A stretch of DNA of 64,000 nt from an uncultured bacterium. GTDB lineage: Bacteria > Planctomycetota > UBA8742 > UBA2392. Shown piece after piece: positions 12,470 through 48,630 of the stretch (position 1 is the first letter of the stretch; every line of letters begins with the position of its first letter). Made by a program: the position numbers and the translations under genes. The notes below the pieces were generated by a model that saw only the letters and a program-made list of their open reading frames with translations, did not search any database and had not been told where the DNA came from. The stretch spans positions 94,578-158,577 of the forward strand of contig CALLQI010000004.1 of NCBI GenBank assembly GCA_938014885.1, in the 5' to 3' direction.

Positions 12470-14500
12470 TCAGTCGATCAGCTTCAGGCCGCGCGGCGAC
12501 AGGAATACCGCAAACGGGCGCCCCACGAACAGTTCGCGCTCGACGTAGGGCATGCGTTCGACCTGCAGATGTTCAATGTCGGCCAGGTTGATCCGCACAT
12601 AGCCGCCGCCTTCGGTGTAGAAGTCAATCGCCGCACGGCCCTGCCGGCGGGCGTGTTCCTTCAGCAGTGCCAGGGCCTTGGCCACGTCGCGGGCGTCAGC
12701 GCCTTCGGTGTCGCCGCGCTCGGCCGGCGTGAAGTGGGCTACCCGATACAGCATTTGCGAGGCGCTGTAGGTGTCGCCTTCGTTGATCGCGCGGGCCAGG
12801 ATTTCCATCAACGCGGGCTGGCTGGCGTGGTCCAGCGCGCCTGAGACTTCACTGTCCTTGAAGAACAGCGTCACCCGCGTCCAGAAGCGGCAATCGGCGC
12901 TGCCCGGCGAGTTGTCGCCCAGCACCAGGAAACGGTCGCCGTCCAGCCGCACGGCAAAGGGGTATTCGTCCAGGTCCGCCGGGCCGTCCAGCATCGTGCG
13001 GCCGACGTAGTACACGTCGCGATCAATCCCCAGCATCTTCACGGCGGCACCGGGGCCGATGCCCTTCAGCGCCAGCCGCGCTTTCCGGCCGCCGGGCGGT
13101 GTGGTCAGGGCCAGCCGGATCGCCTCTTCACTATCGAGTGCCATGCGCTTTTGCGCGTCGCGGGCGCGCAGTTGATCGAGCAAAGGTGAGCCGACGTCCA
13201 CTTCGGCCGCGGTCTCGCCGTCAAGCGCCACGCGCAGCAGGCCGTCCGCCAGCGAAAACTCGAGGACGAACTCGCCCGGGACCTCCAGTTTGGACAGCGC
13301 CCCGTCGGCCAGCGCATTGATGTTGCCGGTTTCGTCGCTGTGGGCCAGCGTTGCCCCGCCGCGGCCGGGGCCCAGCGTCAGCAGGTAGACGTCGCCGTCG
13401 CGGGTCAGTTGCACCGCAAGCTTGCCGTCTGAGGCCAGCTCAACCCGGGCGCGCAGGCGGATGTCCCCCACCACGCGGCGGCCGTAGAAGTCTTTGGGCG
13501 TTTCGACCTTGCCGAAGCTGGCGTCGTGATCCACGACGTCAGCGGGCTCGGCGCCCTTGCCGCGCGGGAACACGGCCTGCCCGTCCTGCTTCAGCGTGAT
13601 TACGCCATCGGCAAATGCGGCCGCGCCTTCGCGGTGGAAGTATTTGACCCAGTCAGAGGTTTCGGCCAGTTCATGCAGGATCGGCAGCCACAGGGTCTCG
13701 CGCGCTTCGCCATCTTTGCGCAGCAGGTTGATCGGCGCGGTATCGTGTTCTTTGACGTACACGTCGCCCTGGGCGATCAGCACCTGTTCGCCGGGCAGGG
13801 CCACGCAGCGCTTGACGTAGGGGTCGGTGCGGCGCAGCGGGTAGCGAAACACCACGGGCTCCCAGCGGCGGGGGTCGCGCCACTGGTAGGTGAATTTGTC
13901 CACGACCACGCGGTCGCCGTCAGTCAGGCTGCCGCGGCCGATGCTGCTGCCGATCAGCGTGGGCGCCATGCTGCCGGACGGGATCTGGAAGGCCTCAAGC
14001 GCGAAGTGCCACACCAGCAGCACGACCACCAGCGCCGCTGCCAGGCTTTCGATGTTGTCGAATATCTTGTCAACGAACGTGGGGTCTTTGGGGCGAATCT
14101 CGCGGCCCTTCACAAGCGCCTTTTCCGAAGCGCCACGCACCGCAAGCGCCGCCACGAATGCAAGCAGCCCGGCCAGGCTGGCAAAGCCCGACACGCGGTG
14201 CAGCGCCATCGCGAGCAGCGCGCAGCCCATCAGCGCCACCACCACGCCGCCGCGCGCGATGGGCGAAACGCCCTTGCGCCCCAGGTTCATGTACCACGAA
14301 GCCCCGGCCAGCAGCGGGATCAGCACCAGCACGGGAAAGCGCAGCCACACGCCGTCCAGGTGCGCGGGCATGAACAAGGCCACCAGCGCGCAAAGCCCAG
14401 CCAGCACGCAGGTGACGTCAGCGGCACGCCGCCGCCACGCGGGTTTTAAGCGCGCGTAGCCCTTCACGACGGGTTCCAGTTTGGCGTTTTCTTCAGCCAT
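12470..14500 (-). CDS. lepB: Signal peptidase I (S26) with an N-terminal multi-TM extension and a large inserted domain
   Basis: Box B IPSGSMAPTL (Ser nucleophile), box C GDRVVVDKF, box D VKRCVALPGE (general-base Lys), box E GDNSPGSADCRFW. Start at ATG 14500 (MAEENAKLEP). About 240 aa are inserted between boxes D and E. Confidence 0.75.
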   Translation of the reverse strand: MAEENAKLEPVVKGYARLKPAWRRRAADVTCVLAGLCALVALFMPAHLDGVWLRFPVLVLIPLLAGASWYMNLGRKGVSPIARGGVVVALMGCALLAMALHRVSGFASLAGLLAFVAALAVRGASEKALVKGREIRPKDPTFVDKIFDNIESLAAALVVVLLVWHFALEAFQIPSGSMAPTLIGSSIGRGSLTDGDRVVVDKFTYQWRDPRRWEPVVFRYPLRRTDPYVKRCVALPGEQVLIAQGDVYVKEHDTAPINLLRKDGEARETLWLPILHELAETSDWVKYFHREGAAAFADGVITLKQDGQAVFPRGKGAEPADVVDHDASFGKVETPKDFYGRRVVGDIRLRARVELASDGKLAVQLTRDGDVYLLTLGPGRGGATLAHSDETGNINALADGALSKLEVPGEFVLEFSLADGLLRVALDGETAAEVDVGSPLLDQLRARDAQKRMALDSEEAIRLALTTPPGGRKARLALKGIGPGAAVKMLGIDRDVYYVGRTMLDGPADLDEYPFAVRLDGDRFLVLGDNSPGSADCRFWTRVTLFFKDSEVSGALDHASQPALMEILARAINEGDTYSASQMLYRVAHFTPAERGDTEGADARDVAKALALLKEHARRQGRAAIDFYTEGGGYVRINLADIEHLQVERMPYVERELFVGRPFAVFLSPRGLKLID

Positions 14501-14560
14501 GGCGATGTGGTGAAGCAAGCTATATTGGCGCCCGTTTGGAACAACCGCACGGAGAGACAA

Positions 14561-15028
14561 ATGCTCAAGGCTGGCGACACCGCGCCCGACTTCAACCTGC
14601 CGGACCAGGACGAAAAGACGCACTCATTGAAAGACAATCGCGGCAAATGGGTCGTGCTGTTCGCATACCCCAAGGCCAACACCCCCGGCTGAACCAAAGA
14701 AGCCATTGCCTTCACCGGTCTGGTGAAAGACTTTGCCAAGCTGAACGCCGTCATCTACGGAATCAGCCCCGACAAACCCGCGGCCCAGAAAAAGTTTGAG
14801 GCCGACCACAGCCTGCGCGTGCCCTTGCTGTGCGACGTGGACAAGGCCGTAACCACGGCCTACGGCGCGTTCGGCAAGAAGATGATGTACGGCCGCGAGG
14901 TGCAGGGAATCATCCGCAGCACCTTCCTGATTGACCCCAAGGGCAAGCTCGCCCGCGTGTGGCCCAACGTAAAGGTAGACGGCCACGCGGAGGCGGTGCT
15001 GGTAGCGCTGAAAGAGCTGACGAAGTAG
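14561..15028 (+). CDS. bcp: Bcp-type 1-Cys peroxiredoxin with an in-frame TGA (14690..14692) at the peroxidatic Cys position; candidate selenocysteine protein
   Basis: Reads MLKAGDTAPDFNLPDQ...GKWVVLFAYPKANTPG-TGA-TKEAIAF...LIDPKGKL..., colinear with E. coli Bcp (...YFYPKAMTPGCTVQAC...). ORFs 14507..14692 and 14723..15028 are in the same frame, separated only by the TGA. GGAGAG lies upstream of ATG 14561. Confidence 0.6.
14711..14727 (+). other. SECIS-like hairpin 18 nt downstream of the in-frame UGA in bcp
   Basis: UUCACC-GGUCU-GGUGAA: a 6-bp stem with a GGU-containing apical loop, placed at the spacing expected for a bacterial SECIS. Confidence 0.4.
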
Positions 15029-25449: not shown

Positions 25450-25934
25450 GGCTGGTCCATTTCCTTCAGCTCGTTGGCGATGCGGCTGTCGAGCGTGCTG
25501 TCGTTGGCGGGCAGCGGCGCGGTCTCATCGGCGCTTTCTTCGGCGCTGGTGCGTTTGCGGGTGACGGTCCAGTAGCCAAAGCCGAACGCCGTCGCCAGCA
25601 CCGCCAGGCTGATCAGCAGCACCGGGTACAGGCTGCTGTTTTCGGGCACCTGCAGCACTTCGGGCCCGAAGCGCTTCACCATCTCCTGCTTGACTTGCCC
25701 GGCGCTGAGTTTGGGGTCGCGCACCAGCTCACGCAGATAGGAGCGCTCGGCGTCTTTTGAGCTGCACACGTTGTGGCTGCACGTGAGCAGGTTTTCGCGG
25801 CAGCCGCAAATGCAGAATAACTGTTCGCCGACTTCCTGGTACAGGCGCTCGGCGTCGTCAGGCGCTCGGGTCTGGGCGCTTAGCGGTGTCGCCAGGGGCG
25901 CGGCAACCAGTAGCAGCAGGATCAGCAGCTTCAT
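25446..25934 (-). CDS. ccmH: Cytochrome c-type biogenesis protein CcmH/NrfF family with an atypical C-I-C-G-C motif
   Basis: Signal peptide, then LFCICGCRENLLTCS aligned to the CcmH LRCxxCQNQ thiol motif, and a C-terminal TM; sits 3-prime of ccmF. Confidence 0.6.
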   Translation of the reverse strand: MKLLILLLLVAAPLATPLSAQTRAPDDAERLYQEVGEQLFCICGCRENLLTCSHNVCSSKDAERSYLRELVRDPKLSAGQVKQEMVKRFGPEVLQVPENSSLYPVLLISLAVLATAFGFGYWTVTRKRTSAEESADETAPLPANDSTLDSRIANELKEMDQP

Positions 25935-28900
25935 GCCTTCCTCCGGCGGCGCATCGTCGGAAGGAAGGCCATCACCGTGCCCAGCGCAATGATCGTGAGG
26001 CCGGTGAGGCCCATCAGCATCTGCGGCTTGATGAAGAAGCGGAAGGTGCCGGTGCCGTCAAGCTGCACGTCCTGCAGGATGAAGTAGAAGTCGCCGCTGA
26101 CGCGCCGGTGGATCGCGGGATCTTTGATCGCTTCCTGGGCGCGCGGCGCACCAGTGCGCTTGTCGTAGAACACGCGCATTCCCGGCGTCAGCGACATGGC
26201 GTCAGCTTCAATCACCGCGATTTCAGCGTCGATGCGGGTCAGTGCCTCGGCCATGCCCGTTATCTCGGCTTCTTTGCGCGCCATTCGCAGGCCCGCCAGG
26301 CTCAGCGGCCGCAGGCTTGTGAGCGCCTTTTGCGACTCGTCATTACCTGCGCCCTGCAGAACGATGTTGCGAACCATTTCGTTGCGCGTCTCGACAGCGT
26401 GGGCCTCAAGCGCGACCGTAAGTTGCTCAAGGCGCTGCATGACTTCAAAGCGGCGGGCCAGGAAGTCGCGTTCATCGACATCCAGGCCAAAGGTCTGGGC
26501 GAATTGCCCGTCGCCCTGGCCGCCGGCCTGCTCCAGCACCATCTTGTGCACTTCCGGCTGCTCGGCCCCCAGCAGCACGCCTTCTTCAGCTGCGGTCTTG
26601 AACGCGCGCTCGATTTCATCCAGCCGCGCGTTCAGTGCGGCGCGGATTGCGCTGACTTTCTCAGGCGACAGGCCGGAAATCGCGCCTTCAAGCTGGCTCT
26701 GTCGCGCGAATTCGGCGTCTGTGGCGGCCTTCAACCGCGCGCGTCCGGAAGCCCACTCCACGGGGAATTGCGCGCCCGCGCCCAGCGCGCCGCGCACGAA
26801 CATGCTGGCCAGCAGTTGCCCGGCCTCAGCGTCGCTTGCGACCCCCACCGGTGCCGTGAACGCAAGCCGCTGCGCCTCGCCAAATGCCTTGATGTAAGCG
26901 TCCGTGTCCAGCCTGGCGGGCGGCGTGTAAGCAAAGATGCGCAGGCTGCTGTCGAAGCGCTCGTACACGACTTTGCGGTCGCGCTGGTTGGCACCCCAGA
27001 TCAGCGCTGCTGCCATGCGCGGGAACGCCTGCTGCAATTGCGGCGGCCACTCGTCGCCGAACTCGCGGTCGAAGTCAGCCTTTTGCGCGGCGACCAGCGC
27101 GTTGGCGTCCTTGTCCGGGTTCTGCCGCACGTAGCGCAGCATGTTCTCGTACACGGCTGCGCGTTCCGGGTCGCGGGCGAAGATTTCCTGCACCGCGTCC
27201 CAGCCCTCAGTGCGCGAGTTGTCGTCGTACACGACCAGCCAGCGTGTGGCCGTAAGCTTGTCTTCCAGCACCGCATAGCCGCCCGGCCGCGCGATCACGG
27301 TGCCTTCAGCCTCATAGAAGCTGCTGTAGTAAATGCCCAGCGCGATCAGCAGCACGCCGATGTGAACGATGTAGCCGCCGTAGCGCCGCCGGTTGGCCAG
27401 GCTGACCTTCAGCATCGCCACGGCCACATTCTCGCGGGTGCTGCGGCTGCGGGCGCGGGCGCCGGCAAAGAATTCCATGACGATGCAGGTGAAGGTGAAG
27501 GCGCAGATCGGCCACAGCGTCAGCTGCACGCACAGCCGCACGGCCGCTGCCGCGTTGGCGATGGTATCGTCACGCCCGAGCTCAATCAGCAGCTCGCTGC
27601 GCATCAGCCAGATCGTGTTCACGACCCCCACCAGGATTGCGGCCGCGACCGGTGCTGTGAACGCGCGCACAAGCTGCTTGCCGCTGTTGCGATGCCACGC
27701 CAGCGACGGGCCAATGCCCATCAGGATCAGCGTCAGCAGGAACAGCGGGATGTTGATCATGATGAAGGCGTCGGGCCCAAGCTCAGTGCCTTCCTTCAGC
27801 CCGTACAGGTTGCGCGTGATCACGGGCCAGAAGGTGATCACCAGCGTCACCAGTGCAATCGCGATCAGCGCCAGGTTGTTCAGCAGGAAGCTGCCCTCGC
27901 GCGAGACGATGTTTTCGAGGCGGCGGTCCGGCTTCAGCAGCGGGTAGCGCCAGACCACGGCCAGCAGGCTGCCGATCAGCACCACGCCGAGAAAGCCATA
28001 GAACCAGACATCCACGTCGCCGGTGGCACCAAAGGCGTGCACGCTGTTGATGATGCCGCTGCGCACCAGGAAGGTGCCGATCACGGTCATGCAGTACGTG
28101 ATGATGATCAGCGCGAACGACCACATGCGCAGGATGCCCCGGCGCTCGGTCACGATCACCGAATGGATGAACGCGGTGCCGGTCAGCCACGGGATGAAGC
28201 TGGCGTTTTCAACCGGGTCCCAGGCCCAATAGCCGCCCCAGCCTAGAATCTCATAGGCCCACAGCCCGCCCAGCGCGATGCCGATGGTCAAAAAGCCCCA
28301 GGCCGCCATCGTCCACAGGCGAATCGGCCGCAGCCAGCCTTCGCCTACTTCGCCCGCCAGCAGGCTGCCGACGGCGTACGCAAAGGGCACGGTCAGGCCG
28401 ACGAAGCCCAGGTACAGCATGGGCGGGTGAATCGCGACCCAGTAGTTGTGCAGGGCCGGGTTCATGCCGTTGCCGTCGTAGCACTGGTCGATCAGCGCCT
28501 TCTGCACCTCGGGTGAAAGCTTGGCCGGGTCGGTCAGGATCAGCCGGTGGATCTCGGCCAGTTTCAGGTTCTCGCCGCCCGACAGGTACGCCTGCTGGAT
28601 CAGGTGGATCATGTCGTTGGGGCCGCGGAAGCCGGGCTTGGCCATGGCCTCACCGACGGTCAGCGTGCCGTGCCAGTACAGCAGGCGCTTGTCTTCATCC
28701 AACGTCGCCCCCACCAGCCAGTTGTAGCTCAGCGCAAAGGGGCTGCTGCGCTGTGCGGCCTCGGTGACGCTGGGCTCAAGCGCAAAGAACGAGGCCATGT
28801 CCGAGGGGCTGGTAATAATGAAGAAGAAAAAGAACTGCACCACCGAAAGCACCAGCAGTACCCACGGCAAACGCCGGTCCGTGCGGTTGTGGCGCTGGGT

Positions 28901-29281
28901 GAAGGCAAACGTCGCCGAAAACCCGGTCAGGATGAAGCACCAGAAAAGCAGGCTGCCCTGCTGGCTTGCCCATAAGGCGCTGATCTTGAAGGCAAGCTCT
29001 TCGTTGTGTTCGGTGACGTGCTGGACATATCCGACGAAGAAGTAGCCGTTGAAGATGCCCACATACAGCAGCACGCAGCAGAACGCCGTCAGCGCAAACA
29101 GCGCGTACTGCGCGCGCCGTGCGGCATGGGCCAGCCGTTCATCCTTGCGCCACACGGCGGCGATACTCAGCCCCAGCGTGAACAGGATGAACAACAGGCC
29201 GAACTGCAGCGCCGCCTGCCCGGTCTGCATCAGCCGGATAGCCGAGGAAAGCTGCTCAATGGTTTCGATGCGGGCCAGCAT
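25931..29281 (-). CDS. ccmF: Cytochrome c heme lyase CcmF, unusually long (1116 aa) with an insertion of about 370 aa in the C-terminal periplasmic domain
   Basis: WWD signature WGGYWAWDPVEN, multiple TM helices, CcmF C-terminal block ...RVFYDKRTGAPRAQ...DFYFILQDVQ...GTFRFFIKPQMLMGLTGLTIIALG. The region EGTVIARPGGYAVLED...AMSLTPGM has no counterpart in typical 650-aa CcmF. Confidence 0.85.
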   Translation of the reverse strand: MLARIETIEQLSSAIRLMQTGQAALQFGLLFILFTLGLSIAAVWRKDERLAHAARRAQYALFALTAFCCVLLYVGIFNGYFFVGYVQHVTEHNEELAFKISALWASQQGSLLFWCFILTGFSATFAFTQRHNRTDRRLPWVLLVLSVVQFFFFFIITSPSDMASFFALEPSVTEAAQRSSPFALSYNWLVGATLDEDKRLLYWHGTLTVGEAMAKPGFRGPNDMIHLIQQAYLSGGENLKLAEIHRLILTDPAKLSPEVQKALIDQCYDGNGMNPALHNYWVAIHPPMLYLGFVGLTVPFAYAVGSLLAGEVGEGWLRPIRLWTMAAWGFLTIGIALGGLWAYEILGWGGYWAWDPVENASFIPWLTGTAFIHSVIVTERRGILRMWSFALIIITYCMTVIGTFLVRSGIINSVHAFGATGDVDVWFYGFLGVVLIGSLLAVVWRYPLLKPDRRLENIVSREGSFLLNNLALIAIALVTLVITFWPVITRNLYGLKEGTELGPDAFIMINIPLFLLTLILMGIGPSLAWHRNSGKQLVRAFTAPVAAAILVGVVNTIWLMRSELLIELGRDDTIANAAAAVRLCVQLTLWPICAFTFTCIVMEFFAGARARSRSTRENVAVAMLKVSLANRRRYGGYIVHIGVLLIALGIYYSSFYEAEGTVIARPGGYAVLEDKLTATRWLVVYDDNSRTEGWDAVQEIFARDPERAAVYENMLRYVRQNPDKDANALVAAQKADFDREFGDEWPPQLQQAFPRMAAALIWGANQRDRKVVYERFDSSLRIFAYTPPARLDTDAYIKAFGEAQRLAFTAPVGVASDAEAGQLLASMFVRGALGAGAQFPVEWASGRARLKAATDAEFARQSQLEGAISGLSPEKVSAIRAALNARLDEIERAFKTAAEEGVLLGAEQPEVHKMVLEQAGGQGDGQFAQTFGLDVDERDFLARRFEVMQRLEQLTVALEAHAVETRNEMVRNIVLQGAGNDESQKALTSLRPLSLAGLRMARKEAEITGMAEALTRIDAEIAVIEADAMSLTPGMRVFYDKRTGAPRAQEAIKDPAIHRRVSGDFYFILQDVQLDGTGTFRFFIKPQMLMGLTGLTIIALGTVMAFLPTMRRRRKA

Positions 29282-29301
29282 GAGCGAAAGCCTGCGTCCC
29301 G

Positions 29302-29751
29302 CTAGGGTTGGGGCGCCTGGGCCTCAGTGATTTCCTTGCCTTCGTAACGCGACGGGCACTGGGTTTGCATCTCAGTCGCCATGAAGACGCCTTTGGCGGC
29401 GTCATAGCGCCCGGTAAGTGTGACGTGGGCTGCCTTCTTGAGTCCCTGGGGCACATCGTCGCCTTCATAGATGACCATGATCTGGCGGGCGTTGGCACTT
29501 GGCTGCGCGCCCTCAGGCGGGATGTCGATGGCGGTGAAGCGCGTGGGCTTGAAGTCGTGCAGGATGTCCACGACCTGGGCCTTCACCTTCACCCGTTCAC
29601 CGTCGTAGTCGCTGCCGGTAAGCTGGCCAACGTCGCGATACTCAACGCCGCCTTCATACAGCGCAAGCGTCACCGCACCGCCGATGGCGGCCACGAACAG
29701 CAGAATCACGATCACGATCTTGACGCTCATGTAAGGCTCCGCGCCCATCAT
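29302..29751 (-). CDS. ccmE: Heme chaperone CcmE, CxxxY variant
   Basis: N-terminal TM, OB-fold region, heme-attachment segment ATEMQTQCPSRY where canonical CcmE has LAKHDENY; the His is replaced by Cys. Confidence 0.8.
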   Translation of the reverse strand: MMGAEPYMSVKIVIVILLFVAAIGGAVTLALYEGGVEYRDVGQLTGSDYDGERVKVKAQVVDILHDFKPTRFTAIDIPPEGAQPSANARQIMVIYEGDDVPQGLKKAAHVTLTGRYDAAKGVFMATEMQTQCPSRYEGKEITEAQAPQP

Positions 29752-30001
29752 GGGGCACGCAAATCGTTATAACAGGGGCAGTCACGGCCACAAGCAAAAC
29801 GCCCGGCGGCCGTGACCATGAAACGCGGCAGGCCTGTGCAAGCTTCGCCAATTCCGCCGGATGCTGCAGGAAAGTGCCCGGCGCTGTGACCTGCCGCAAA
29901 ACGCACCACTTTTCTGCCCATCCGCGGGCTTGCGGCTAAACGCTTTCGCGGCCGGGGCTTGCCTGCTATACCGGAAGGTCCGACACCGATAAGGAATCAC
30001 C

Positions 30002-31597
30002 ATGGCTAAGCGAGATATGGGCACTCGCAGCATCAAGCTGCCGGGCGGCGGCCAGCCGCCGCAGCCGCAACGTCCTTCCGGGCGCGCGCCGGCACCATCG
30101 GCGCCGAACAGCGACGTCGGCCGCGCAATGAGCGCGCTGGACGCCAACGCCGAAGTACGCGACCGCAGCCAGTTGCCCGCCAAGGTGAAGGTGATCACCC
30201 CGCAGGTGATCATGGGCATCGTGCAGAGCATCACCGACAAGTTCGGGATGGAGATCGACCGCGACGAATTTAACCAGCTGGTGCTGGCCCAGACGCAGAA
30301 CGAAATGCGCCTTCAGCAGGCCCAGGACCGGATTGAGCAATACAAGGGCGAGTACAAGAAGATCTACGACGCCTACGTGCAGTTGCAGCAGTCGATGAAA
30401 CAGTTGCAGGCCGGCGCCATGGGCAACCAGGAAATCGCCCAGCAGTACGAAGAACAAATCGCCGAGCTGCAGCAGCGCAACGCCCAGGCCGTCGACACCT
30501 ACATGTCGATCCAGCAGCAGCTGGATGAGACCACCGCAGCATATGAGCAGTTGCAGGATCAGATGCAGGCCGGCCTGTCCGAGCGCGAGCAGGACATCGC
30601 GCAGATGCAGCAGGAACTGGAAGAGCTGCGCGCCCAAGCCGGTAACTCTGCAGAGATTGAACAGCTTCGCACGCAAGTCGAATACCTCGAAGGCCAACTG
30701 GCGCAGGTTGAAAGCAGCAGCGCCCAGGCCAGCGAGGGCCTGAACCAGGAAGCCGACGCCCGCCAGGCCGCCGAGCAAGAACGCGACGAAGCCATCAGCC
30801 GCGCCAACGCCATCGAAGCCGAATTGCAGGCCCTTCAGCAGCAGCTGGAAGAAGAACGCCAGCAGGCCGAAACCATCCGCGCCGAAGCCGAACAACTGAA
30901 GCAGGAAGCCGAAAGCGCGGGCCAAAGCGCCGGTGCCGAAGTCGATGAACTCAAGCGCAAGCTGAAGGAAAGCGAACGCAGCCGCGCCAAGCTCGAGAAC
31001 ATGGAGATTGAACTCGAGAAGCTGCGCACGGCCGAAGGCGCGTGGCTTGAAGACAAGCGCCGCCTTGCCAGCCAGCTCAGCAACGAAACCAACAACCGCC
31101 GTGCCGCCGAAGAAAAGCTCAAGGCCATCGAAATGGGCGAAGTCCTGCCCGAGGCCGCCAAGGGCGCCGAAGAAAAGGCCAAAAAGGCCGAAGCCGCCGC
31201 CGCCGAAGCGCAAAAGCAGGTCGCCGAGCTCAAGAAGGAACTCGAGAAGGCCAAGGCCGGCGCAAGCAAAGCCGACAGCATGAGCGGCGAGTTGCAGCAG
31301 GCCAAGGACGCGCTGGCCAAGACCCAGGCTGAACTGAAGCAGCTTGAGGCCGACCTGGCCAAGTCAGGCAACGCGGCCAAAGAACTGGGCATGCTCAAGC
31401 GCAAGTTCGAAAACGTTGAGTCCGAACTCGAGGGCCTGCGCGCCGCCGAAGGCAAGTGGCTGGAAGAAAAGCGTCGCATGGCGGCCCAGCTCAGCAACGA
31501 AACCAACCTGCGCCGAGAGTTGGAAGACAAGTACAAATCCGAACTGAATGAAGCCCGCGCCGAAACTGAGGCCGGAAAAAAAAACTCCAGGCAGTAA
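30002..31597 (+). CDS. Coiled-coil protein, N-terminal portion (531 aa) ending just after an A9 tract
   Basis: Almost entirely heptad-like E/Q/A/L/K/R sequence. The stop TAA at 31595..31597 lies inside a hairpin immediately after the A9 run at 31576..31584. Confidence 0.6.
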   Translation: MAKRDMGTRSIKLPGGGQPPQPQRPSGRAPAPSAPNSDVGRAMSALDANAEVRDRSQLPAKVKVITPQVIMGIVQSITDKFGMEIDRDEFNQLVLAQTQNEMRLQQAQDRIEQYKGEYKKIYDAYVQLQQSMKQLQAGAMGNQEIAQQYEEQIAELQQRNAQAVDTYMSIQQQLDETTAAYEQLQDQMQAGLSEREQDIAQMQQELEELRAQAGNSAEIEQLRTQVEYLEGQLAQVESSSAQASEGLNQEADARQAAEQERDEAISRANAIEAELQALQQQLEEERQQAETIRAEAEQLKQEAESAGQSAGAEVDELKRKLKESERSRAKLENMEIELEKLRTAEGAWLEDKRRLASQLSNETNNRRAAEEKLKAIEMGEVLPEAAKGAEEKAKKAEAAAAEAQKQVAELKKELEKAKAGASKADSMSGELQQAKDALAKTQAELKQLEADLAKSGNAAKELGMLKRKFENVESELEGLRAAEGKWLEEKRRMAAQLSNETNLRRELEDKYKSELNEARAETEAGKKNSRQ

Positions 31598-31608
31598 CTG
31601 AACTGGAG
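31576..31608 (+). other. Slippery A_AAA_AAA heptamer (inside an A9 run) plus an adjacent 6-bp hairpin; candidate -1 frameshift or transcriptional slippage site
   Basis: gcc GGA AAA AAA AAC tcc ag...; CUCCAG (31585..31590) pairs with CUGGAG (31603..31608) around the in-frame stop. The -1 frame continues as KKKLQAVTELESQRDKAHRDREVSDRSLQVIEQECDSLRKQRDSLAQQLETLRAGGG..., joining ORF 31708..33933. Confidence 0.4.
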
Positions 31609-31707
31609 TCGCAGCGCGACAAAGCACACCGCGACCGCGAAGTCAGCGACCGATCACTGCAAGTCATCGAACAGGAATGTGACAGCCTTCGCAAACAGCG
31701 CGATTCG

Positions 31708-33933
31708 TTGGCGCAACAGCTTGAGACATTGCGTGCCGGTGGCGGCGAGAAAGCAGCCGAACTACAGGCCGCGCTGGCCGACGCCCAGGCCAACCTGAAG
31801 GATGCCGAGCACAAGCTGGCCGCACGTCAGGAACACGTCGCCAAGATCGCCGCCGAGTACGACGAACTGCGCAAAAAGCTCGCGGCCGCCGAAGCCGACG
31901 CAGCCGCGAAGGCCGAGCAACTGAAGGGTGCCAGCGCCGACAGCGACCGCCTGACCGCCCTGGACACGCAGTTGCACGACCAGGCCGAGGCGCTGGCCCG
32001 CGCCAAGGCCCAACTGGGCGAACGCGACGCCGAGCTTGAGAAAGCCGCAGCCGAGCAAGCCAAGCTGCGCACCGACCTTCGCACCACCGAGGCCGCGCGC
32101 GAAGCCCTTGCCCGCGAAGCCGACGAACTGCGCCGCCTGATGCAGGAAATGAACGACGCCAACCGCGCCGATGCGGAAGGCATCAACGACCGCGTAGAGG
32201 CCGTCGAGCGCCAACTGAAGGAAAAGGAAGACGCAGCCGCCCAGGCCGAGCTCGAGCGCGACGAAATTGCCGCGCAACTCAAAGACGCCCAGGCCGAAGT
32301 GCAAACCGCGCGCGCCGCCCGCGACGCCGCCCAGCAGTCCGCTGAACAAGCCGCCGAACAGGCCGAAGCCCTGCGCAAGCGCATCGGCGAACTCGAACGC
32401 AACGCCGGCCAGGCCGATGAGCTGCAGCGCCGCCTCGAAGGCCGCGACCGCCAGATTGAAGTGGCGCAGCAGCAGATCGCCGACCTGAAAGAAGAACTGA
32501 AGCTGGAAGAGGAAGAACGCAACCGGGCAGCCACCCAGTTGCAGCAGGCCCGCGACGCGGAAACCCGCGCCGTCGAACAACTGGAAGCAGCCGAGCAAGA
32601 GATCGCGGACCTGAAGGAAAAGCTGGCCGAGGCCGAACAGGCCGGAAGCTCGCAGAACGAGGCACTAGCCAGCCAGGCCGAGACCCTGCGCGAGCAGTTG
32701 AATGCGGCCCAGGACGCGGCCGAACAGGCCGGCCGCGAAGCACGCGAAGCCCGCCGCAACGCCGAGGACCTGACCGAGCGACTTGAGCAGGCACAGGCCG
32801 ACGCAGAGGCCGCCCGCGAAGCCCTGGAAAAGGCCAAAGCCGACGAAAGCGCGCTCAAGCCGCTGCGTGACGAAAACGCCGCGCTGAAGGCCCGCAACGA
32901 AGAGATCACCCGCAAACGCGACGAAGTCCTGCGCGGGCTGGAGACCGCAGTGGGCGAGCTGGACGCGCTGAAGGAAGTCATCGCCGGACGCGACGTGGAC
33001 CTGCGCACCGCCCGCGGTGAACTGGCCGAAAGCCGCGCCGAGGCTGAACAGCTTCGCAAGCAGCTTGAGGCCAAACAGGCCGAAGCCAGCGCGCTGGCCG
33101 GCAAGTCGACCGAAGGCGAACGTGAGCTGCGCAACAAACTGGAAAGCGCGACGGAAAAGCGCTTCGAAGCCGAGAAGGCGCTGGTCGAGGCCAAGGCACG
33201 CCTCGACAGCGAACAGCAGATGCGCGCCGAACAGCAGCGCCGCATTGAGCAGCTGGAAGACGCGCTGCGCCGCGAACGCGAGCAGGTGGACAAGTCCGCC
33301 CCGGCCGAGGCCCTGACGACCCTTTCAGGCCAGCTCGCCAGCGAACGCCAGAAGTGGGAACGCCTGACTGAGCAAAAGGACCGCGAAGCTGCCGAGCTGC
33401 AAAAGAAGCTGGACGAAGCCGAGTTGCGCGAGAACGAACTCGCAAGCCAGCTTGAAAGCGTGGAGCTGAGCCAGCAGGACGTAATGCGCGCCAAAGCCGT
33501 CGCAGGCCAGCGCCGCGCGCAGATCGAGCGCATGCAAAGCGACGTCGAAGGCGCACGCCGCCAGGCCAAAGAGGCCGAGACCTACTGGAAGTCAGAGATG
33601 ACCGAGTTCCAGCAAGAAGTGGCAGCACACCTTGAAGCCGCCGAAAACGGCGAAGAGGGCAGCGACGCGCGGCTGCAGAAGCTGATGGAAAAGCTGAAAG
33701 TCGGCATCGCCGACAAGTACGCCAAGCTGCGCCGCAAAGCCACCCGCACCGAAAAAGAGCTGCAGCAGACGCAGGACAAGCTGGCGGCGGTCGAGCGCGT
33801 CATGGCCAAGCGCGAAGAAGAAGAAGCGCGGCTGCGCAAACTGATCGAAGAAATGGAAGCCCGCGAGAACATCCCGGGCGCCAAGAAGCCTGAGGCGGAG
33901 CCCAAGAAGAAACCCGCGCGCAAGAAGAAGTAG
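31708..33933 (+). CDS. Coiled-coil protein, C-terminal portion (at least 741 aa); the -1 frame is open all the way back to the A9 tract
   Basis: Same E/A/Q/R/L-rich heptad composition as 30002..31597. The ORF-track start at 31708 is only a TTG; no independent SD or ATG. Ends KKPEAEPKKKPARKKK. Confidence 0.55.
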   Translation: MAQQLETLRAGGGEKAAELQAALADAQANLKDAEHKLAARQEHVAKIAAEYDELRKKLAAAEADAAAKAEQLKGASADSDRLTALDTQLHDQAEALARAKAQLGERDAELEKAAAEQAKLRTDLRTTEAAREALAREADELRRLMQEMNDANRADAEGINDRVEAVERQLKEKEDAAAQAELERDEIAAQLKDAQAEVQTARAARDAAQQSAEQAAEQAEALRKRIGELERNAGQADELQRRLEGRDRQIEVAQQQIADLKEELKLEEEERNRAATQLQQARDAETRAVEQLEAAEQEIADLKEKLAEAEQAGSSQNEALASQAETLREQLNAAQDAAEQAGREAREARRNAEDLTERLEQAQADAEAAREALEKAKADESALKPLRDENAALKARNEEITRKRDEVLRGLETAVGELDALKEVIAGRDVDLRTARGELAESRAEAEQLRKQLEAKQAEASALAGKSTEGERELRNKLESATEKRFEAEKALVEAKARLDSEQQMRAEQQRRIEQLEDALRREREQVDKSAPAEALTTLSGQLASERQKWERLTEQKDREAAELQKKLDEAELRENELASQLESVELSQQDVMRAKAVAGQRRAQIERMQSDVEGARRQAKEAETYWKSEMTEFQQEVAAHLEAAENGEEGSDARLQKLMEKLKVGIADKYAKLRRKATRTEKELQQTQDKLAAVERVMAKREEEEARLRKLIEEMEARENIPGAKKPEAEPKKKPARKKK

Positions 33934-41959: not shown

Positions 41960-43255
41960 CTAACTCCAGTACGGGTGGATATAGGCGTGCGAACCCTGGG
42001 TTGAAGCTTCAAAGGGGGGCATGTCAGACTCTGGCTTCAGAGTGTCGGTGCGCAGCAGAATCACGCCCGGGCGGTCGCTTCCGCCGGTGACGACGAAATA
42101 GGTGCCGTCCATGGTGACGGCGACACCGCGCGGCTGCGGGATGTCCTCGCCGCCGATGACTTCGCGGAATTTGCGGGCCTTTACGTCCCAGAAGGTCAGC
42201 AGGCCCTTGGCGCTGCCGTCCTGGGTGCGGCTGTCGCGCCCGTAGGGGTTGGTGGCTGCCAGCAGGCCTGACTTTTCGTGATAGGCCAGGCTGAGAGTTT
42301 CGCCCAGCATCGCGCTGACGACCGGTGCCGGCGAGGCCATCGTGGCCAGCTCGCCGCCGGTGGGCCGGATGCTGAGAGCCCCAAGGGCCGAGCGCGTGTC
42401 CAGGCCCTCGCGCATCGCGTGCGCGACCACCAGGTCGCCGCCCGGCGTGACCAGCAGGTGGCCGGCGTTGATCAGCGGGTTGTCGGGCCATGCCACTTTC
42501 TCGAGCAACTTGCCCGTGGCTACTTCGACATAGGCCACGTTGGGTTCAGCCCCGCCGTCGATGCTGCCGCCGCCGTTGGTGACGGCCACGATCTTGCCGC
42601 CATCGAGGAACTGGCAGTCGTGCGGCCACTCACCGTGGGTGGGGAAGTCGCCGATCACCGAAAAGTCGTCGGCGCGCCTCACGCTCATGCGACCGACGTA
42701 GGTTTCTTTGTCGTACTCGGTGGCATAGACCAGCGTGCCATCGGTGCTGTAGGCACCGTGGCCGTAGAATTCGCAGCCCGGGCTTGGGCGGATGCGGCCG
42801 ATGATTTCGTTGCGCTTGAGGTCAATCTCCGCGCCGCCGGGCCCCTTTTTCTCGAAGACCAGCACGCGGTTGGCGGCAAAGGGGTTGGCGATCACGCCGT
42901 GGGCCAGAAAGCCGATGTCGGTGATCAGCTTTTGCCTGGCGCCCTTGTCGCGAACGGCCTGGTCCAGGTTCAGCTGCGTGAAGATGTAGCGTTTTTCGCC
43001 GGTTTCGGCATTCAGCTGGCTGCCGCCGCAAAGCAACGTCCCGTAGACCAGCCCGGCGGTTGGCGGCTCGCCATGCTGGGCCTTGGGGCCGGTGTCGGCC
43101 GGCGGCTCGTTGGTGTTGCCGGGTGGCACGGGCGCGTTGGCGACGTTGGCTGGGCCGGTGTTACCGCCGCAGGCGGCCAGTAGCAGGCTGCCGGTTGCCC
43201 CGGCCTGCAGGAATGCGCGTCGGGCCCGATTGGGGCCTTGGTTGTCATGGGCCAT
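41960..43255 (-). CDS. Tat-exported lipoprotein, beta-propeller-like (DUF1513-like)
   Basis: N-terminal RRAFLQAGATGSLLLAACGG (twin-arginine plus lipobox); 431 aa; no catalytic motif recognised. Confidence 0.55.
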   Translation of the reverse strand: MAHDNQGPNRARRAFLQAGATGSLLLAACGGNTGPANVANAPVPPGNTNEPPADTGPKAQHGEPPTAGLVYGTLLCGGSQLNAETGEKRYIFTQLNLDQAVRDKGARQKLITDIGFLAHGVIANPFAANRVLVFEKKGPGGAEIDLKRNEIIGRIRPSPGCEFYGHGAYSTDGTLVYATEYDKETYVGRMSVRRADDFSVIGDFPTHGEWPHDCQFLDGGKIVAVTNGGGSIDGGAEPNVAYVEVATGKLLEKVAWPDNPLINAGHLLVTPGGDLVVAHAMREGLDTRSALGALSIRPTGGELATMASPAPVVSAMLGETLSLAYHEKSGLLAATNPYGRDSRTQDGSAKGLLTFWDVKARKFREVIGGEDIPQPRGVAVTMDGTYFVVTGGSDRPGVILLRTDTLKPESDMPPFEASTQGSHAYIHPYWS

Positions 43256-43379: not shown

Positions 43380-44003
43380 ATGCGCCACCGCGACGTTGAG
43401 TCAGCACGCCAGGCCCTCGAAGACTGGAAAGCCCTGCGCGAACGCGTTGTGGCCGAGGGCGGCGAACAGTACGAGAAGCCTGTGCTGGTGCGCTTCTTGG
43501 CCAGCAACACCTTTGAAGTGATGGACCGCGACATCGTCGAGGACGAGTTTTACGTCCTGCGCAAATACCAGATCGTGCGCGAACTCGACGCCACGGGCGC
43601 CGACCTGGAACAGGCAATCCGCGAAACCCGAGGCCGTGACACCAGCCGCCAGGGCCCCCAGCGCGGTACCGGCCGCCACGGCCCGCAGCGCGGCAGCCAG
43701 CGCCACGGCCAGCGCAACAGCCAGCGTCATGCCGGCCAGCAGCGTCCCGACCGCGGCCCGCGCGGCGACAGCCCCGATCGCAGCGGAAGGCCCCCGCGCC
43801 CCGAGCGCCCGCAAGGCGAAGGCCAGCAGGAACAGACGCAGGGCGACCGCCCACGCGGCGACCGTCCGCAGGGTGACCGGCCGCAAGGTGAACGATCCGG
43901 GCGCCGCCGCCGTCGTCGCGGCCCGCGCCGCGGACCACGCCCCGGCCAAAGCGGAACCGGCAGCCAGGGCCCGGCCCCATCCGCGCCCCCGCCTGCGGCT
44001 TGA
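43380..44003 (+). CDS. Hypothetical protein with a structured N-terminal domain and an Arg/Gly/Gln/Pro-rich disordered tail
   Basis: ATG 43380 (MRHRDVESARQALEDWKAL...), then RGTGRHGPQRGSQRHGQRNSQRH...GDRPRGDRPQGDRPQGERSGRRRRRRGPRRGPRPG. The upstream part of ORF 43083..44003 overlaps the convergent lipoprotein gene and is rejected. Confidence 0.5.
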   Translation: MRHRDVESARQALEDWKALRERVVAEGGEQYEKPVLVRFLASNTFEVMDRDIVEDEFYVLRKYQIVRELDATGADLEQAIRETRGRDTSRQGPQRGTGRHGPQRGSQRHGQRNSQRHAGQQRPDRGPRGDSPDRSGRPPRPERPQGEGQQEQTQGDRPRGDRPQGDRPQGERSGRRRRRRGPRRGPRPGQSGTGSQGPAPSAPPPAA

Positions 44004-44097
44004 CCCTTGTTGGGACGCATGTTGAAGTTCGCGGCGTTATAACCTGCGGCCGTCTGGCCCCTGAGTTTCGAAGTGTGCGCATTGCCCGGAGATTGCC

Positions 44098-44766
44098 ATG
44101 ACAGAAATCGACCCACGCCTGCTGCAGGGACGTCTCGCCGATGAAGATGAAGACGATGACGAAGGCGACAACGAAAACGGCGAAGAAAACGGTAAGGACA
44201 AGAACGGCAAAAACGGCGGGCCCGACCCGCTGGCGATGCGCCTGCTGAAGTCACGCACGATCATCATCAGCCGTGGCGTCGATGACAAGCTTGCGGCCTC
44301 AACCATTGCGCAGCTTCGCATCCTTGAAGATGACGACGCCAAGAAGCCGATCACATTCATCGTCAACAGCCCGGGTGGCAGCGCCGACAGCGGCTTTGCG
44401 ATCCTGGACTACGCGCGCTTCGTGAAGCCGCCGATACGCAGTATCGTCTGCGGTATCTGCGCCAGCGCGGCCGTGATGATTCACCTTGCCGCCGAAAAGC
44501 AGAACCGCTTCGCCACGCCTTCCAGCCGATTCCTGCTGCACCAGCCCAGCATGGCAGCCCGCGGCCAGGCCAGCGACCTGGAAATCCTGAGCGCCGAAAT
44601 CGACCGGTTGAAGCTGTACTACAACCAGATCGTGGCCCAGGAGACCGGCCGCCCGCTCAAGCAGGTCGAGAAAGACGTGCACCGCGACTTCTGGATCCCC
44701 GCAGAGGCCGCCGTCGAATACGGGCTGATCAAGGCCGTGGTCAAGTCACGCAGCGAGATCGAGTAA
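44098..44766 (+). CDS. clpP: ClpP-family serine protease paralog with an acidic N-terminal extension (orphan, no clpX adjacent)
   Basis: VNSPGGS, the Ser in GICASAAV, the His in LLHQP, the Asp in VHRDF and the C-terminal AEAAVEYGLI all align with E. coli ClpP. The first roughly 45 aa are DEDEDDDEGDNENGEENGKDKNGKNGG. Confidence 0.8.
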   Translation: MTEIDPRLLQGRLADEDEDDDEGDNENGEENGKDKNGKNGGPDPLAMRLLKSRTIIISRGVDDKLAASTIAQLRILEDDDAKKPITFIVNSPGGSADSGFAILDYARFVKPPIRSIVCGICASAAVMIHLAAEKQNRFATPSSRFLLHQPSMAARGQASDLEILSAEIDRLKLYYNQIVAQETGRPLKQVEKDVHRDFWIPAEAAVEYGLIKAVVKSRSEIE

Positions 44767-46097
44767 TGGTGTTGCGCTGCGCGGTCCTGCTGGCGTTTTG
44801 CATGCTCGTCCTTGCCGGGTGCGAGGGCGACTTTGACCAGCGCGTCGAAGAAGCAGGCACACAGGGCCCCGGCGCCGGAAGCACAGGCAGCATCGTCAAC
44901 CCTGACAGCAACTTCGTGCGCGGTTTCGCCAGCACCGGCGGTGCCGTGCGCAACGCCGTCGTGACTCTGCGTCCGATCAACGACGACGGCAGCATCGACT
45001 TCACGGAAGCTGGCCTGCTTGGCACCGGCTTCACGTTCAGCAACGGGATTTACCAGGTCAGCCTGCGGCGTCAGTACCGCGGGCCGATCCTGGTTGAAAT
45101 CCGGGGCCAGAACACGCTGGCCGTGCCCAGCGATGTCGGCAACCCGGCAACGGCCCGTACTGAGAAATTTCACCCCATGAACCCGGGGCACGTGATGTAC
45201 AGCGTGCTGCCGCACTATGACGACTACAGCACCGGCGACACGCACGTCACGCCGCTGACCACCGTGGCCGTGATGCGCGGCCTCTCGTTCGACGGCAGCA
45301 TCGCCGGCGTGACGGGCGGCGTGGGGATGGGGATGTTCGGCCTGATGTGCCAGCAGGTGGCGCGCTACTTCGGCCTTGAGCGAATTCGCGCCGTCAGCCC
45401 CACCGATTTCGCGCTGTCGGGCGGCCTGCCGGGTAGCAAGAATTACTCGTACGTGCTGGCGGCACTCAGCCAGGTGGCCAAGGACTTCGGCGTCGCGAAC
45501 ATCAACGACTTCTGGCTTGGCATGTCGCAGGACGCCTTCGACGACGGCGTGTTGAACGGCAGCATCGGATATGTGCCCAACACCGCGGTGCCGATGCCGG
45601 ACCTTTCGGCGTCGGGCCTGATCGGCGATGCACTGTTCAACAACTACCTGGACCCGAACAACCTTGAGCGCATTCCCGGCACCGACAACACCGAAGTGAC
45701 GCCCGGCTCTTCGCTGGGGCAACTGGTTACGCACCTCGACACCGCGCGCGACATCAACGCAATCGTGCTGGACTACGAGCTGACTGTGCGCATTCCGGAC
45801 GACATGACCCTTGCCCAGGGCGACATCGTCTACACCCGCACCACGGTCCTGAAGCGGCTGGGCAACGGAACGAACTTTCACCCGTTTGGCGATTCTGGCG
45901 GGCCCGGCTTTGTCGAGTTCGACTTCGTGAGCAGCTCACCGGCCAACGTGGGCGTGCAGCCGTTCGGCCGCATTGTCGTAAACCCGCTGGCACCGGACGG
46001 CGACTACACGATCACGCTGAACGTAAGCCCGCGCGCCGGGCAGACCTTCATCACCGGCCCCAGCGACAGCTACAGCTTCACCGTCCGCGTACGCTAG
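44766..46097 (+). CDS. Hypothetical lipoprotein (443 aa), translationally coupled to the clpP-like gene
   Basis: The start overlaps the clpP-like stop (TAATG). Lipobox LVLAGCEG. No family recognised. Confidence 0.55.
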   Translation: MVLRCAVLLAFCMLVLAGCEGDFDQRVEEAGTQGPGAGSTGSIVNPDSNFVRGFASTGGAVRNAVVTLRPINDDGSIDFTEAGLLGTGFTFSNGIYQVSLRRQYRGPILVEIRGQNTLAVPSDVGNPATARTEKFHPMNPGHVMYSVLPHYDDYSTGDTHVTPLTTVAVMRGLSFDGSIAGVTGGVGMGMFGLMCQQVARYFGLERIRAVSPTDFALSGGLPGSKNYSYVLAALSQVAKDFGVANINDFWLGMSQDAFDDGVLNGSIGYVPNTAVPMPDLSASGLIGDALFNNYLDPNNLERIPGTDNTEVTPGSSLGQLVTHLDTARDINAIVLDYELTVRIPDDMTLAQGDIVYTRTTVLKRLGNGTNFHPFGDSGGPGFVEFDFVSSSPANVGVQPFGRIVVNPLAPDGDYTITLNVSPRAGQTFITGPSDSYSFTVRVR

Positions 46098-47514: not shown

Positions 47515-48630
47515 CTAGCGCACGGAACTGTCGGGCTTGGGCTCAGACTTCTGCAGGTACACCCACACGTAGGGCTTGCGGTTGAAGGGCGCCTTGCGGG
47601 TGCCTTCCTTGGCCGGTTCGGTGTTGGCCCACATGGAGTAACCGCCGACCACGAGATCCAGCTTGCCGTCGCCGTTGTAGTCGATCACGTCAAAGTACAG
47701 TCCCGCGTCGGCGCGCACCGCGCCTTCGGCGTCTTTCTTGGCGGGGGCAATCAGCGCCTTGGGCGCGTCGAACTTTGGCTCGCCCTTTTTGCCGGTGTTG
47801 CGGGCCCAGAACACGCCGCCGCCTTCACCGTTGCCGTAGGTGTCGCCGAACGTGCCGAACAGCAGGTCGTCCACGCCGTCTTTGTCCCAGTCCAGCAGGC
47901 GCGGCGAAGTGACCTTGCCGCCCAGTTCAAGCGGCTTGTCGCCGGACATGATGCGCTTGCTGATGGTTGCATACTTGGGCTCTTTGGTGCTGCCCTCGTT
48001 CAGGTTCAGCCACAGGCCGCCGTTGCGGTCGCCGAGGATGATGTCGAGGTCGCCATCGGCGTCCCAGTCCCATGCAAAGGCCGAAATGCAGTGGGCGCCG
48101 CCCTGGGCTGCGTCGGTCATGTTCTTGCTGGTCCACTTGCGGGTTTCGTAGTCCCAGTACTGGGACAGGATGATGCGCGCGCCTTCGCTGTTCTTGACCT
48201 GCGATGGCGTCTGGAAGCCTTCTTTGCTGCCGAAGCTCACCCAAGGCGAGCCGTCAAACGTGGCGGTGAAGATGTCAGTGATGCCGTCGCCGTTGAAGTC
48301 CACAAACTGTGGGGCCATCCCGATGCATCACCAGTTGTTGAATTTCAAAGGCTTGCCATCGGCACCGTTCAGCGTCTTTTCTTCGCCCCAACCGTCTTCG
48401 GTGCGGGTGCTTACCGTCAGGCTGCCACGCAGGTCGCCGATCACCATCTCGATCTTGCCGTCTCCGTCGATGTCATGCAGCGCGGGCGAAGGATACAGAC
48501 GGTCCGCGGTGCCCAGCTTGTGGCCGAGCGGGGCATCGCCGGCCTTGAGTTGCACCGGTGCCTCAAACGTCTGTGCGGACAGTACCGTCGCGGCAAGCGC
48601 GCAGGCTGCTGCCAAGGTCGGTTTCATCAT
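47515..48630 (-). CDS. Secreted FG-GAP/VCBS-repeat beta-propeller protein interrupted by one in-frame TGA (48328..48330)
   Basis: ORFs 48328..48630 and 47515..48318 are in the same frame; the reverse strand reads ...KPLKFNNW-TGA-CIGMAPQFVDFNGDGITDIF.... Repeated DxDGDG/DxNGDG calcium-binding loops occur on both sides (DIDGDGKIE, DFNGDGITD, DWDADGDLD, DWDKDGVDD, DYNGDGKLD). Confidence 0.55.

Follow-up and report, generated by a model that had tools for sequence, protein, structure and literature searches.

Canonical clpP genes usually adjoin clpX, often in the order tig-clpP-clpX, and the N-terminal hairpin of their products both gates the axial pore and contacts the ATPase. A number of bacteria, including Chlamydia, Mycobacterium, Listeria and Leptospira, possess two ClpP proteins that assemble into mixed ClpP1-ClpP2 barrels made of two different rings; one of the two clpP genes is located away from clpX and encodes a protein that functions solely in combination with the other paralog (PMC9823225). 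Here we describe a clpP gene (44098-44766, + strand, 222 amino acids (aa)) in a 64,000-nucleotide stretch of contig CALLQI010000004.1 from an uncultured bacterium of the Planctomycetota (assembly GCA_938014885.1, positions 94,578 to 158,577; the whole stretch is called the window below). The gene is preceded by one for a protein with a long basic tail and followed by one for a lipoprotein, and its product begins with a strongly acidic extension. Sequence comparison suggests that this product is probably a catalytically competent accessory subunit of the ClpP2 type.

The closest described protein is ClpP2 of Pseudomonas aeruginosa (PaClpP2). It is inactive as a lone heptamer and active solely in a ClpP1(7)-ClpP2(7) barrel, in which ClpX docks on the ClpP1 ring alone (PMC12451819; PMC13056064). 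The docking clefts of the PaClpP2 ring are occluded by its own C-terminal residues 187-199 and its axial portal is blocked by residues 14-20, while residues 1-13, which are disordered and unprocessed, are directed into the chamber (PMC12451819; PMC13056064). The role of this N-terminus is still open, since its deletion left the protein insoluble (PMC12451819).

Membership of the window protein in the ClpP family is clear from the Pfam family CLP_protease (PF00574), which matches residues 47-217 with 184 bits against a cut-off of 20.2. The catalytic core (aa 49-222, 44242..44766, + strand) ends in the tail VVKSRSEIE and carries Ser123, His148 and Asp197 (codons 44464-44466, 44539-44541 and 44686-44688, + strand). 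These align with Ser97, His122 and Asp171 of E. coli ClpP, whose sequence in the alignment was confirmed to be identical to PDB 1tyf, and none of them varies among 20 family members. The residues of the ring-ring contact are likewise retained, and the handle region (GQASD, R196-D197) is intact. On the canonical equivalog model TIGR00493, however, the protein scores 156.3 bits, below the cut-off of 308.6. Its best NCBIfam model is NF009205 (PRK12553) with 212.1 bits, under the curated cut-off of 228, and the second best is PRK14512 with 191 bits, under its cut-off of 251. NF009205 is also the best model for four family relatives (217.7-231.8 bits, one of which passes the cut-off of 228), and PaClpP2 itself reaches 263.7 bits on it. 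The closest PDB chains, 9ndj_P and 7m1l_A, are both P. aeruginosa ClpP2 (147 bits, residues 29-221); ClpP of Helicobacter pylori, ClpP of E. coli and PaClpP1 score 144.5, 127 and 117 bits, respectively. Two other assignments were rejected: a phage prohead ClpP-like protease, since NF045542 gives 66 bits against a cut-off of 120 and the window holds no phage genes, and an exported ClpP, since the protein has no signal peptide.

The departure from the canonical enzyme is concrete at the surfaces that serve the ATPase. In E. coli ClpP the cleft for the IGF loop of the ATPase is made up of Tyr60, Tyr62, Phe82, Ile90, Met92, Phe112 and Leu114. The window ClpP retains Phe82, Ile90 and Phe112, but Tyr60 is replaced by Thr86, which is invariant in the family, Tyr62 by Ile, Met92 by Cys and Leu114 by Thr. 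In the same alignment the sequence of the N-terminal pore hairpin is absent, with an acidic run in its place. At the other end of the protein, VVKSRSEIE aligns at the sequence level with IIVSEREI of PaClpP2, part of the cleft-filling residues 187-199. Since the hairpin is missing, the IGF-loop cleft is without Tyr60, Tyr62 and Leu114, and the R-x-E-I-E tail matches the cleft-folding segment of PaClpP2, a ring of this protein would be unable to recruit an ATPase itself.

The position of the gene agrees with this picture. No clpX, clpA/C, tig or second clpP was found anywhere in the 64-kb window by Pfam scans of its 57 main open reading frames (ORFs), a six-frame search with a ClpP hidden Markov model (HMM) or a six-frame phmmer search with E. 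coli ClpX, a query validated against PDB 8e91. Relatives were collected as one genome per species; at least 391 were found, and the best 80 loci were kept with 8-kb flanks where the contig allowed. These come from Planctomycetota, Ca. Eisenbacteria, Brocadiia (including Ca. Kuenenia), Ca. Uabimicrobium and a few others. Six loci were also obtained by exact protein look-up; of these, L003 is the same as L023 and L006 the same as L026. The homologue matches with a named organism are nearly all from Planctomycetes/Planctomycetota, and all stem from metagenome-assembled genomes (MAGs). Within 8 kb of the subfamily clpP there is no second clpP and no clpX-like gene in any of the best 80 species loci. 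A preliminary description of this DNA, which had recognized the ClpP motifs GICASAAV, LLHQP and VHRDF (all present) and had seen neither clpX nor clpA nor tig adjacent, is thereby extended from the immediate neighbourhood to the whole window and to the relatives; its view of an orphan, non-housekeeping paralog is borne out also by the failure on TIGR00493, the lost hairpin and the replacement of Tyr60, Tyr62 and Leu114.

Could the protein nevertheless be the sole housekeeping ClpP of its genome, equipped with a lineage-specific N-terminus and served by clpX and clpA/C genes located elsewhere? Its triad and handle region are intact, public MAG records label it "ATP-dependent Clp protease proteolytic subunit", and the search for other Clp genes covered the 64-kb window of the genome. 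We consider this improbable, however, for a protein that attains about half of the TIGR00493 cut-off (156 vs 309 bits), has lost the pore-gating hairpin together with Tyr60, Tyr62 and Leu114, finds its best model in that of PaClpP2, and belongs to a subfamily whose gene never stands beside clpX in the best 80 species loci.

The most conspicuous feature of the window ClpP is its N-terminal extension (aa 1-48, 44098..44241, + strand), which consists of the motif MTEIDPRLLQGRL, an acidic run of D, E, N, G and K, and a G/P linker. The 48 residues that precede helix A include 16 D/E and 6 K/R, for a net charge of -10; residues 15-41 are D, E, N, G and K alone, and part of the acidic run is encoded by a (GAAGAC)x6 repeat at 44143-44179. 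Since helix A of mature E. coli ClpP is itself preceded by about 19 residues, the net gain in length amounts to about 25-30 residues, so that the preliminary description was right about the acidic extension but put its length, at about 45 extra residues, too high. No downstream alternative start is conserved among the homologues, which indicates that the extension is translated. A mis-called start codon was considered and rejected, the extension and its N-terminal motif being conserved in frame across species.

Among the best 80 relatives the N-terminal region (13-50 residues) is negatively charged in nearly all, and among the distinct N-termini a run of at least three D/E is seen in 69 and missing from 12, with carriers in Planctomycetota, Ca. 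Eisenbacteria and Brocadiia. Being common to the ClpP subfamily, the acidic extension is no peculiarity of this locus. Usually a hydrophobic-R-[LF] pair stands before the run, as in TRL-DEDD, WRF-DDDD or PRLA-EDD, and in the wider form hydrophobic-R/K-[LFY] the pair recurs directly before the acidic run across phyla. This recurrence suggests a short functional motif of the form hydrophobic-R-[LF]-(D/E)n, beyond mere low complexity. In L048, L061, L068 and L074, from Ca. Eisenbacteria and other MAGs, the N-terminus reads, for example, MSRLWPFKY followed by 11-13 consecutive Asp; here the acidic region sits about 40 codons 5' of the ClpP core. A literature search turned up neither an account of ClpP paralogs in Planctomycetes nor one of an acidic ClpP extension.

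By analogy with PaClpP2, we infer that the window ClpP forms a heptameric ring stacked on a ring of canonical ClpP, the product of a gene located elsewhere in the genome. ClpX and ClpA/C would dock solely on the canonical ring, where substrates would also enter, and the ClpP2-type ring would contribute a second set of active sites whose preference in cleavage differs. The acidic N-terminus may be seen as an enlarged form of the short disordered N-terminus of PaClpP2, which would lie at or near the closed distal pore and would most likely tune gating or product specificity. The ClpP chamber measures about 51 angstroms. From residue volumes we estimate that seven tails, each of about 45 residues, would take up some 34,000 cubic angstroms, or roughly half the chamber, which makes it probable that the tails protrude at least partly.

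A number of points weigh against this proposal. The canonical partner ring is assumed. The NF009205 score of the window ClpP (212.1) stays below the curated cut-off of 228, the margin of PaClpP2 over canonical ClpPs among the PDB chains is small (147 vs 144.5 bits for H. pylori ClpP), and identity to PaClpP2 is only about 41%, which makes the transfer of its quaternary behaviour an extrapolation. The division of ATPase binding between the two rings differs in Chlamydia and Mycobacterium, and because the assignment of ring to ATPase varies among systems, behaviour is not transferable from the two-ClpP systems. Moreover, to judge from its conserved hydrophobic-R-[LF]-(D/E)n element, the tail may bind something specifically and be more than a passive disordered plug, and the strictly conserved coupling to the lipoprotein gene has no place in the PaClpP2 model.

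The clpP stop codon (TAA, 44764-44766) and the start codon of the lipoprotein gene (44766-46097, + strand, 443 aa) share one nucleotide in the sequence TAATG (44764..44768, + strand), an overlap read directly from the sequence that couples the translation of the two genes. In all 22 species with at least 68% ClpP identity, the lipoprotein gene lies directly 3' of clpP on the same strand. The junction is a 1-nt overlap in 13 of 23 distinct cases and the gap is at most 6 nt in 21 of them, figures in which a few junctions are upper estimates of coupling because the nearest start codon was preferred. Of 58 more distant loci, in which ClpP identity is at most 67%, 57 have no lipoprotein neighbour. 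Distant homologues do occur next to clpP, 3' and on the same strand in L031 (169 bits on the lipoprotein profile) and in convergent orientation in L004 (28-31% identity). Acidic extension, gene order and stop/start overlap recur in dozens of species, so that the operon is not a product of chance. Since clpP is translationally coupled to the lipoprotein gene, the two are co-expressed; the coupling is not evidence of a physical link.

The lipoprotein starts with a signal peptide and lipobox, MVLRCAVLLAFCMLVLAG-C19 (44766..44822, + strand), ending in LAGC. Cys19 is invariant in 36 homologues, as are G21, D24 and Q25 of the following CxGDFDQR, and the lipobox varies as L-[AS]-[GA]-C. An AlphaFold2 model (mean pLDDT, the predicted score in the local distance difference test, 87.8; predicted template modelling score 0.83) divides the mature protein (44823..46097, + strand) into a disordered G/S/T linker (aa 20-46), a beta-sandwich (about 50-152), a helical domain (about 163-324) and an immunoglobulin (Ig)-like sandwich (339-442). 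An invariant cluster in the helical domain, D248/D256/D259/D260/N264/S266 (DFWLGMSQDAFDDGVLNGS), looks like a metal- or calcium-binding loop. The protein has no relative among Pfam, NCBIfam or PDB profiles, apart from a weak hint of DUF1935 in 15 of 36 family members when each was scanned against Pfam, and a Foldseek comparison of the model with the PDB matched generic Ig-like domains alone. Since ClpP is without a signal peptide and the lipoprotein is exported, direct contact between the two is unlikely.

Genes for membrane or envelope proteins recur immediately 5' of the clpP-lipoprotein pair in relatives, namely those for an Rce1-like/CPBP membrane protease or for the prolipoprotein diacylglyceryl transferase Lgt; lgt is directly 5' of clpP in L006/L026, L025 and L028. 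In L007 and L011 the CPBP protease gene separates clpP from the gene for the basic-tail protein, and a precomputed Pfam match places it there in L003 (= L023) as well; L020 also carries an insert at this place.

ClpP-like TepA of Bacillus subtilis is reported to be needed for efficient preprotein translocation. By analogy, the window ClpP might be an export-linked peptidase that clears signal peptides or untranslocated precursors and is tied to the co-translated lipoprotein and to lipoprotein-maturation genes. Such a role would fit the strict conservation of the stop/start coupling, the lgt and CPBP genes 5' of clpP at the loci just named (for CPBP, L003/L023, L007 and L011), and a weak likeness to the signal-peptide peptidase SppA domain (TIGR00706, E 0.0096). 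We give it little credence, however: the TIGR00706 match amounts to 15.6 bits, far under the cut-off of 155, the lipoprotein neighbour is missing from 57 of 58 more distant loci, the evidence is otherwise one of neighbourhood only, and the window's own lgt and lspA genes lie a long way from the operon.

The gene upstream of clpP (43380-44003, + strand) encodes 207 aa, divided into a folded 85-aa head and a basic tail of 122 aa. It is separated from clpP by 94 nt, a gap that contains a Shine-Dalgarno-like GGAG (44088-44091, + strand) 6 nt 5' of the ClpP ATG and no terminator-like site on the + strand; with the 1-nt overlap that follows, the three + strand genes occupy 43380-46097. The head (aa 1-85, 43380..43634, + strand) begins with MRHRD at a start conserved in the homologues, contains the invariant motif EVMDRDIVEDEFYV and is predicted by AlphaFold2 as helix, strand, strand, short helix, strand and helix, with pLDDT mostly above 90 over residues 10-90; the alignment has 25 invariant columns. 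The R/G/Q/P tail (aa 86-207 plus stop, 43635..44003, + strand) has a net charge of +18, is disordered (pLDDT about 50) and ends in the motif RRRRRRGPRRGPRPG; the pattern RRRxRRxxRRG is conserved in the tails of the family. Tail length in relatives ranges from 58 to 126 aa, with the net charge steady at +14 to +21. Here and in L001 the tail is about twice as long as in most relatives because of in-frame tandem repeats (periods of 27, 15 and 12 nt, within 43641-43945), with a charge still near +18.

The upstream protein has no Pfam or NCBIfam match, no PDB profile match at E<0.1 and, in spite of a confident model, no Foldseek match in the PDB at E<0.05; these searches gave no likeness in sequence or fold to known Clp adaptors such as ClpS. 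An HMMER search of 1.84 billion representatives found only 8 clusters at E<1e-10, all within the clade. The basic-tail gene is present in 15 of the 22 close species, adjacent to clpP in 11 and separated from it by 1.1-2.6 kb in 4, and is missing from L025-L028 and from every one of the 58 more distant loci (ClpP identity up to 67%). The protein represents a lineage-specific orphan family that is loosely linked to ClpP, and it is probably a binder of nucleic acids or other polyanions.

The preliminary description had suggested that the three genes may form a self-contained envelope or regulatory proteolysis module. In such a module the basic tail would bind the acidic extension, as substrate, adaptor or inhibitor, and the lipoprotein would represent the envelope side. 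Its individual observations were accurate: the TAATG overlap, the 443-aa lipoprotein, and a basic tail of about 120 aa (122 as measured) opposite in charge to the ClpP extension (+18 vs -10). The three-gene arrangement proved to be conserved in relatives, the trio recurring in 15 of 22 close species; the genes are on one strand and close together (94-nt gap, 1-nt overlap), and envelope-related genes, lgt or that for the CPBP protease, lie immediately 5' of clpP in relatives. The interpretation as such fares less well and appears unlikely to us. Against the proposed pairing of charges stand the acidic extensions of loci that lack the basic-tail gene (the 58 more distant ones; L025-L028), the lack of co-variation in charge and length between the two tails (Spearman rho -0.34, p 0.17, n 18) and, in 4 of 15 species, the insertion of another gene that parts the basic-tail gene from clpP. 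Proteolysis in the envelope is hard to reconcile with a ClpP devoid of a signal peptide and a lipoprotein that is exported, that is, with different compartments. Finally, the best model and the closest structure are those of PaClpP2, and this characterized member of the family is inactive alone (PMC12451819), which argues against self-containment.

A related and still less probable idea retains the ClpP2-type ring but makes its tails a specific docking device and not a passive plug. Seven hydrophobic-R-[LF] plus (D/E)n segments per ring would project from the distal face, capture polybasic disordered proteins, for example the neighbour with the RG tail, and, with no ATPase involved, either sequester them or pass them inwards, while translational coupling would tie the ring stoichiometrically to the envelope lipoprotein.

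The left neighbour of the locus is a divergent DUF1513 gene (41960..43255, - strand; Pfam DUF1513, 101.8 bits), of context value only, whose position and orientation are the same in L001, L002 and L003. Ordinary genes surround the locus, coding for the DUF1513 protein, a cold-shock protein, a LysM protein, DnaJ, RtcB, FG-GAP proteins, argininosuccinate synthase and a SulP transporter. G+C in the window is 61-69%, with strong third-position G+C in the frames of the three genes, and Rfam and tRNA scans of the window gave no matches.

Some other features were noted in passing. On the + strand, 29993-33933 shows an AT skew of 0.46-0.54 and holds two consecutive ORFs in different frames (534 aa and 787 aa), both with Q/E/A/K-rich coiled-coil sequence and no Pfam family, which may together represent a single gene (about 1300 aa) interrupted by a frameshift. 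On the - strand, an in-frame TGA (48328-48330; KFNNW-TGA-CIGMAPQFVDFNGDG) lies between ORFs 48328-48630 and 47515-48318 and parts a 100-aa ORF bearing a signal peptide from a 267-aa FG-GAP ORF in the same frame. A pseudogene, an error in sequencing or a site of recoding could account for it; no structure resembling a selenocysteine insertion sequence is present in the RNA downstream (z-score 0.40). Three housekeeping proteins on the - strand are of unusual length: Rho (834-2780) has about 235 extra N-terminal residues, a 717-aa protein (12470-14623) shows only a short match to signal peptidase S26, over residues 190-296, and a CcmF-like protein of 1130 aa (25931-29323) has about 440 residues beyond its CcmF domains.

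To our knowledge, work on accessory ClpP rings has dealt almost exclusively with pathogens. The subfamily described here offers a natural series, spanning Planctomycetota, Ca. Eisenbacteria and anammox bacteria, in which the N-terminal region, enlarged to 25-50 residues, is strongly acidic and carries a conserved short motif, and which could show what this segment does. Also of interest is that a cytoplasmic protease subunit is coupled, stop codon to start codon and with strict conservation, to an exported lipoprotein, a link for which the PaClpP2 model has no place.

Set against the known systems, the window ClpP shares with canonical ClpP (E. coli, 1TYF) the PF00574 fold family, the triad, and the handle and ring-ring contact residues, but it has neither hairpin nor propeptide sequence, Tyr60, Tyr62, Met92 and Leu114 are replaced, and its gene is not next to clpX or tig. 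With the two-ClpP systems it has in common its second-best NCBIfam model, PRK14512, although its score is under the cut-off; it differs from them in its polyacidic N-terminal extension, as none of them has been described with one (the literature search found nothing relevant). The likeness is greatest to PaClpP2 (PA3326; 7M1L, 9NDJ chain P), whose best NCBIfam model is likewise NF009205 and whose structure is the nearest among those solved. The PaClpP2 gene is also an orphan away from clpX, its Ser-His-Asp triad is intact, its N-terminus is non-canonical, charged and disordered in place of a beta-hairpin, and RDFW, RFLLHQPS and the C-terminal tail x-S-[ER]-x-E-I are found in both proteins. However, about 20 residues precede helix A in PaClpP2 and about 48 in the window ClpP, where the N-terminus has a net charge of -10 and the conserved hydrophobic-R-[LF]-(D/E)n element; Tyr60 and Leu114 are kept in PaClpP2 and are both Thr in the window ClpP; and the window gene is coupled to a lipoprotein gene, a link of a kind not described for PaClpP2. 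The locus most likely represents a further member of the known ClpP2-type class in the company of two orphan neighbours, and not a new machine.

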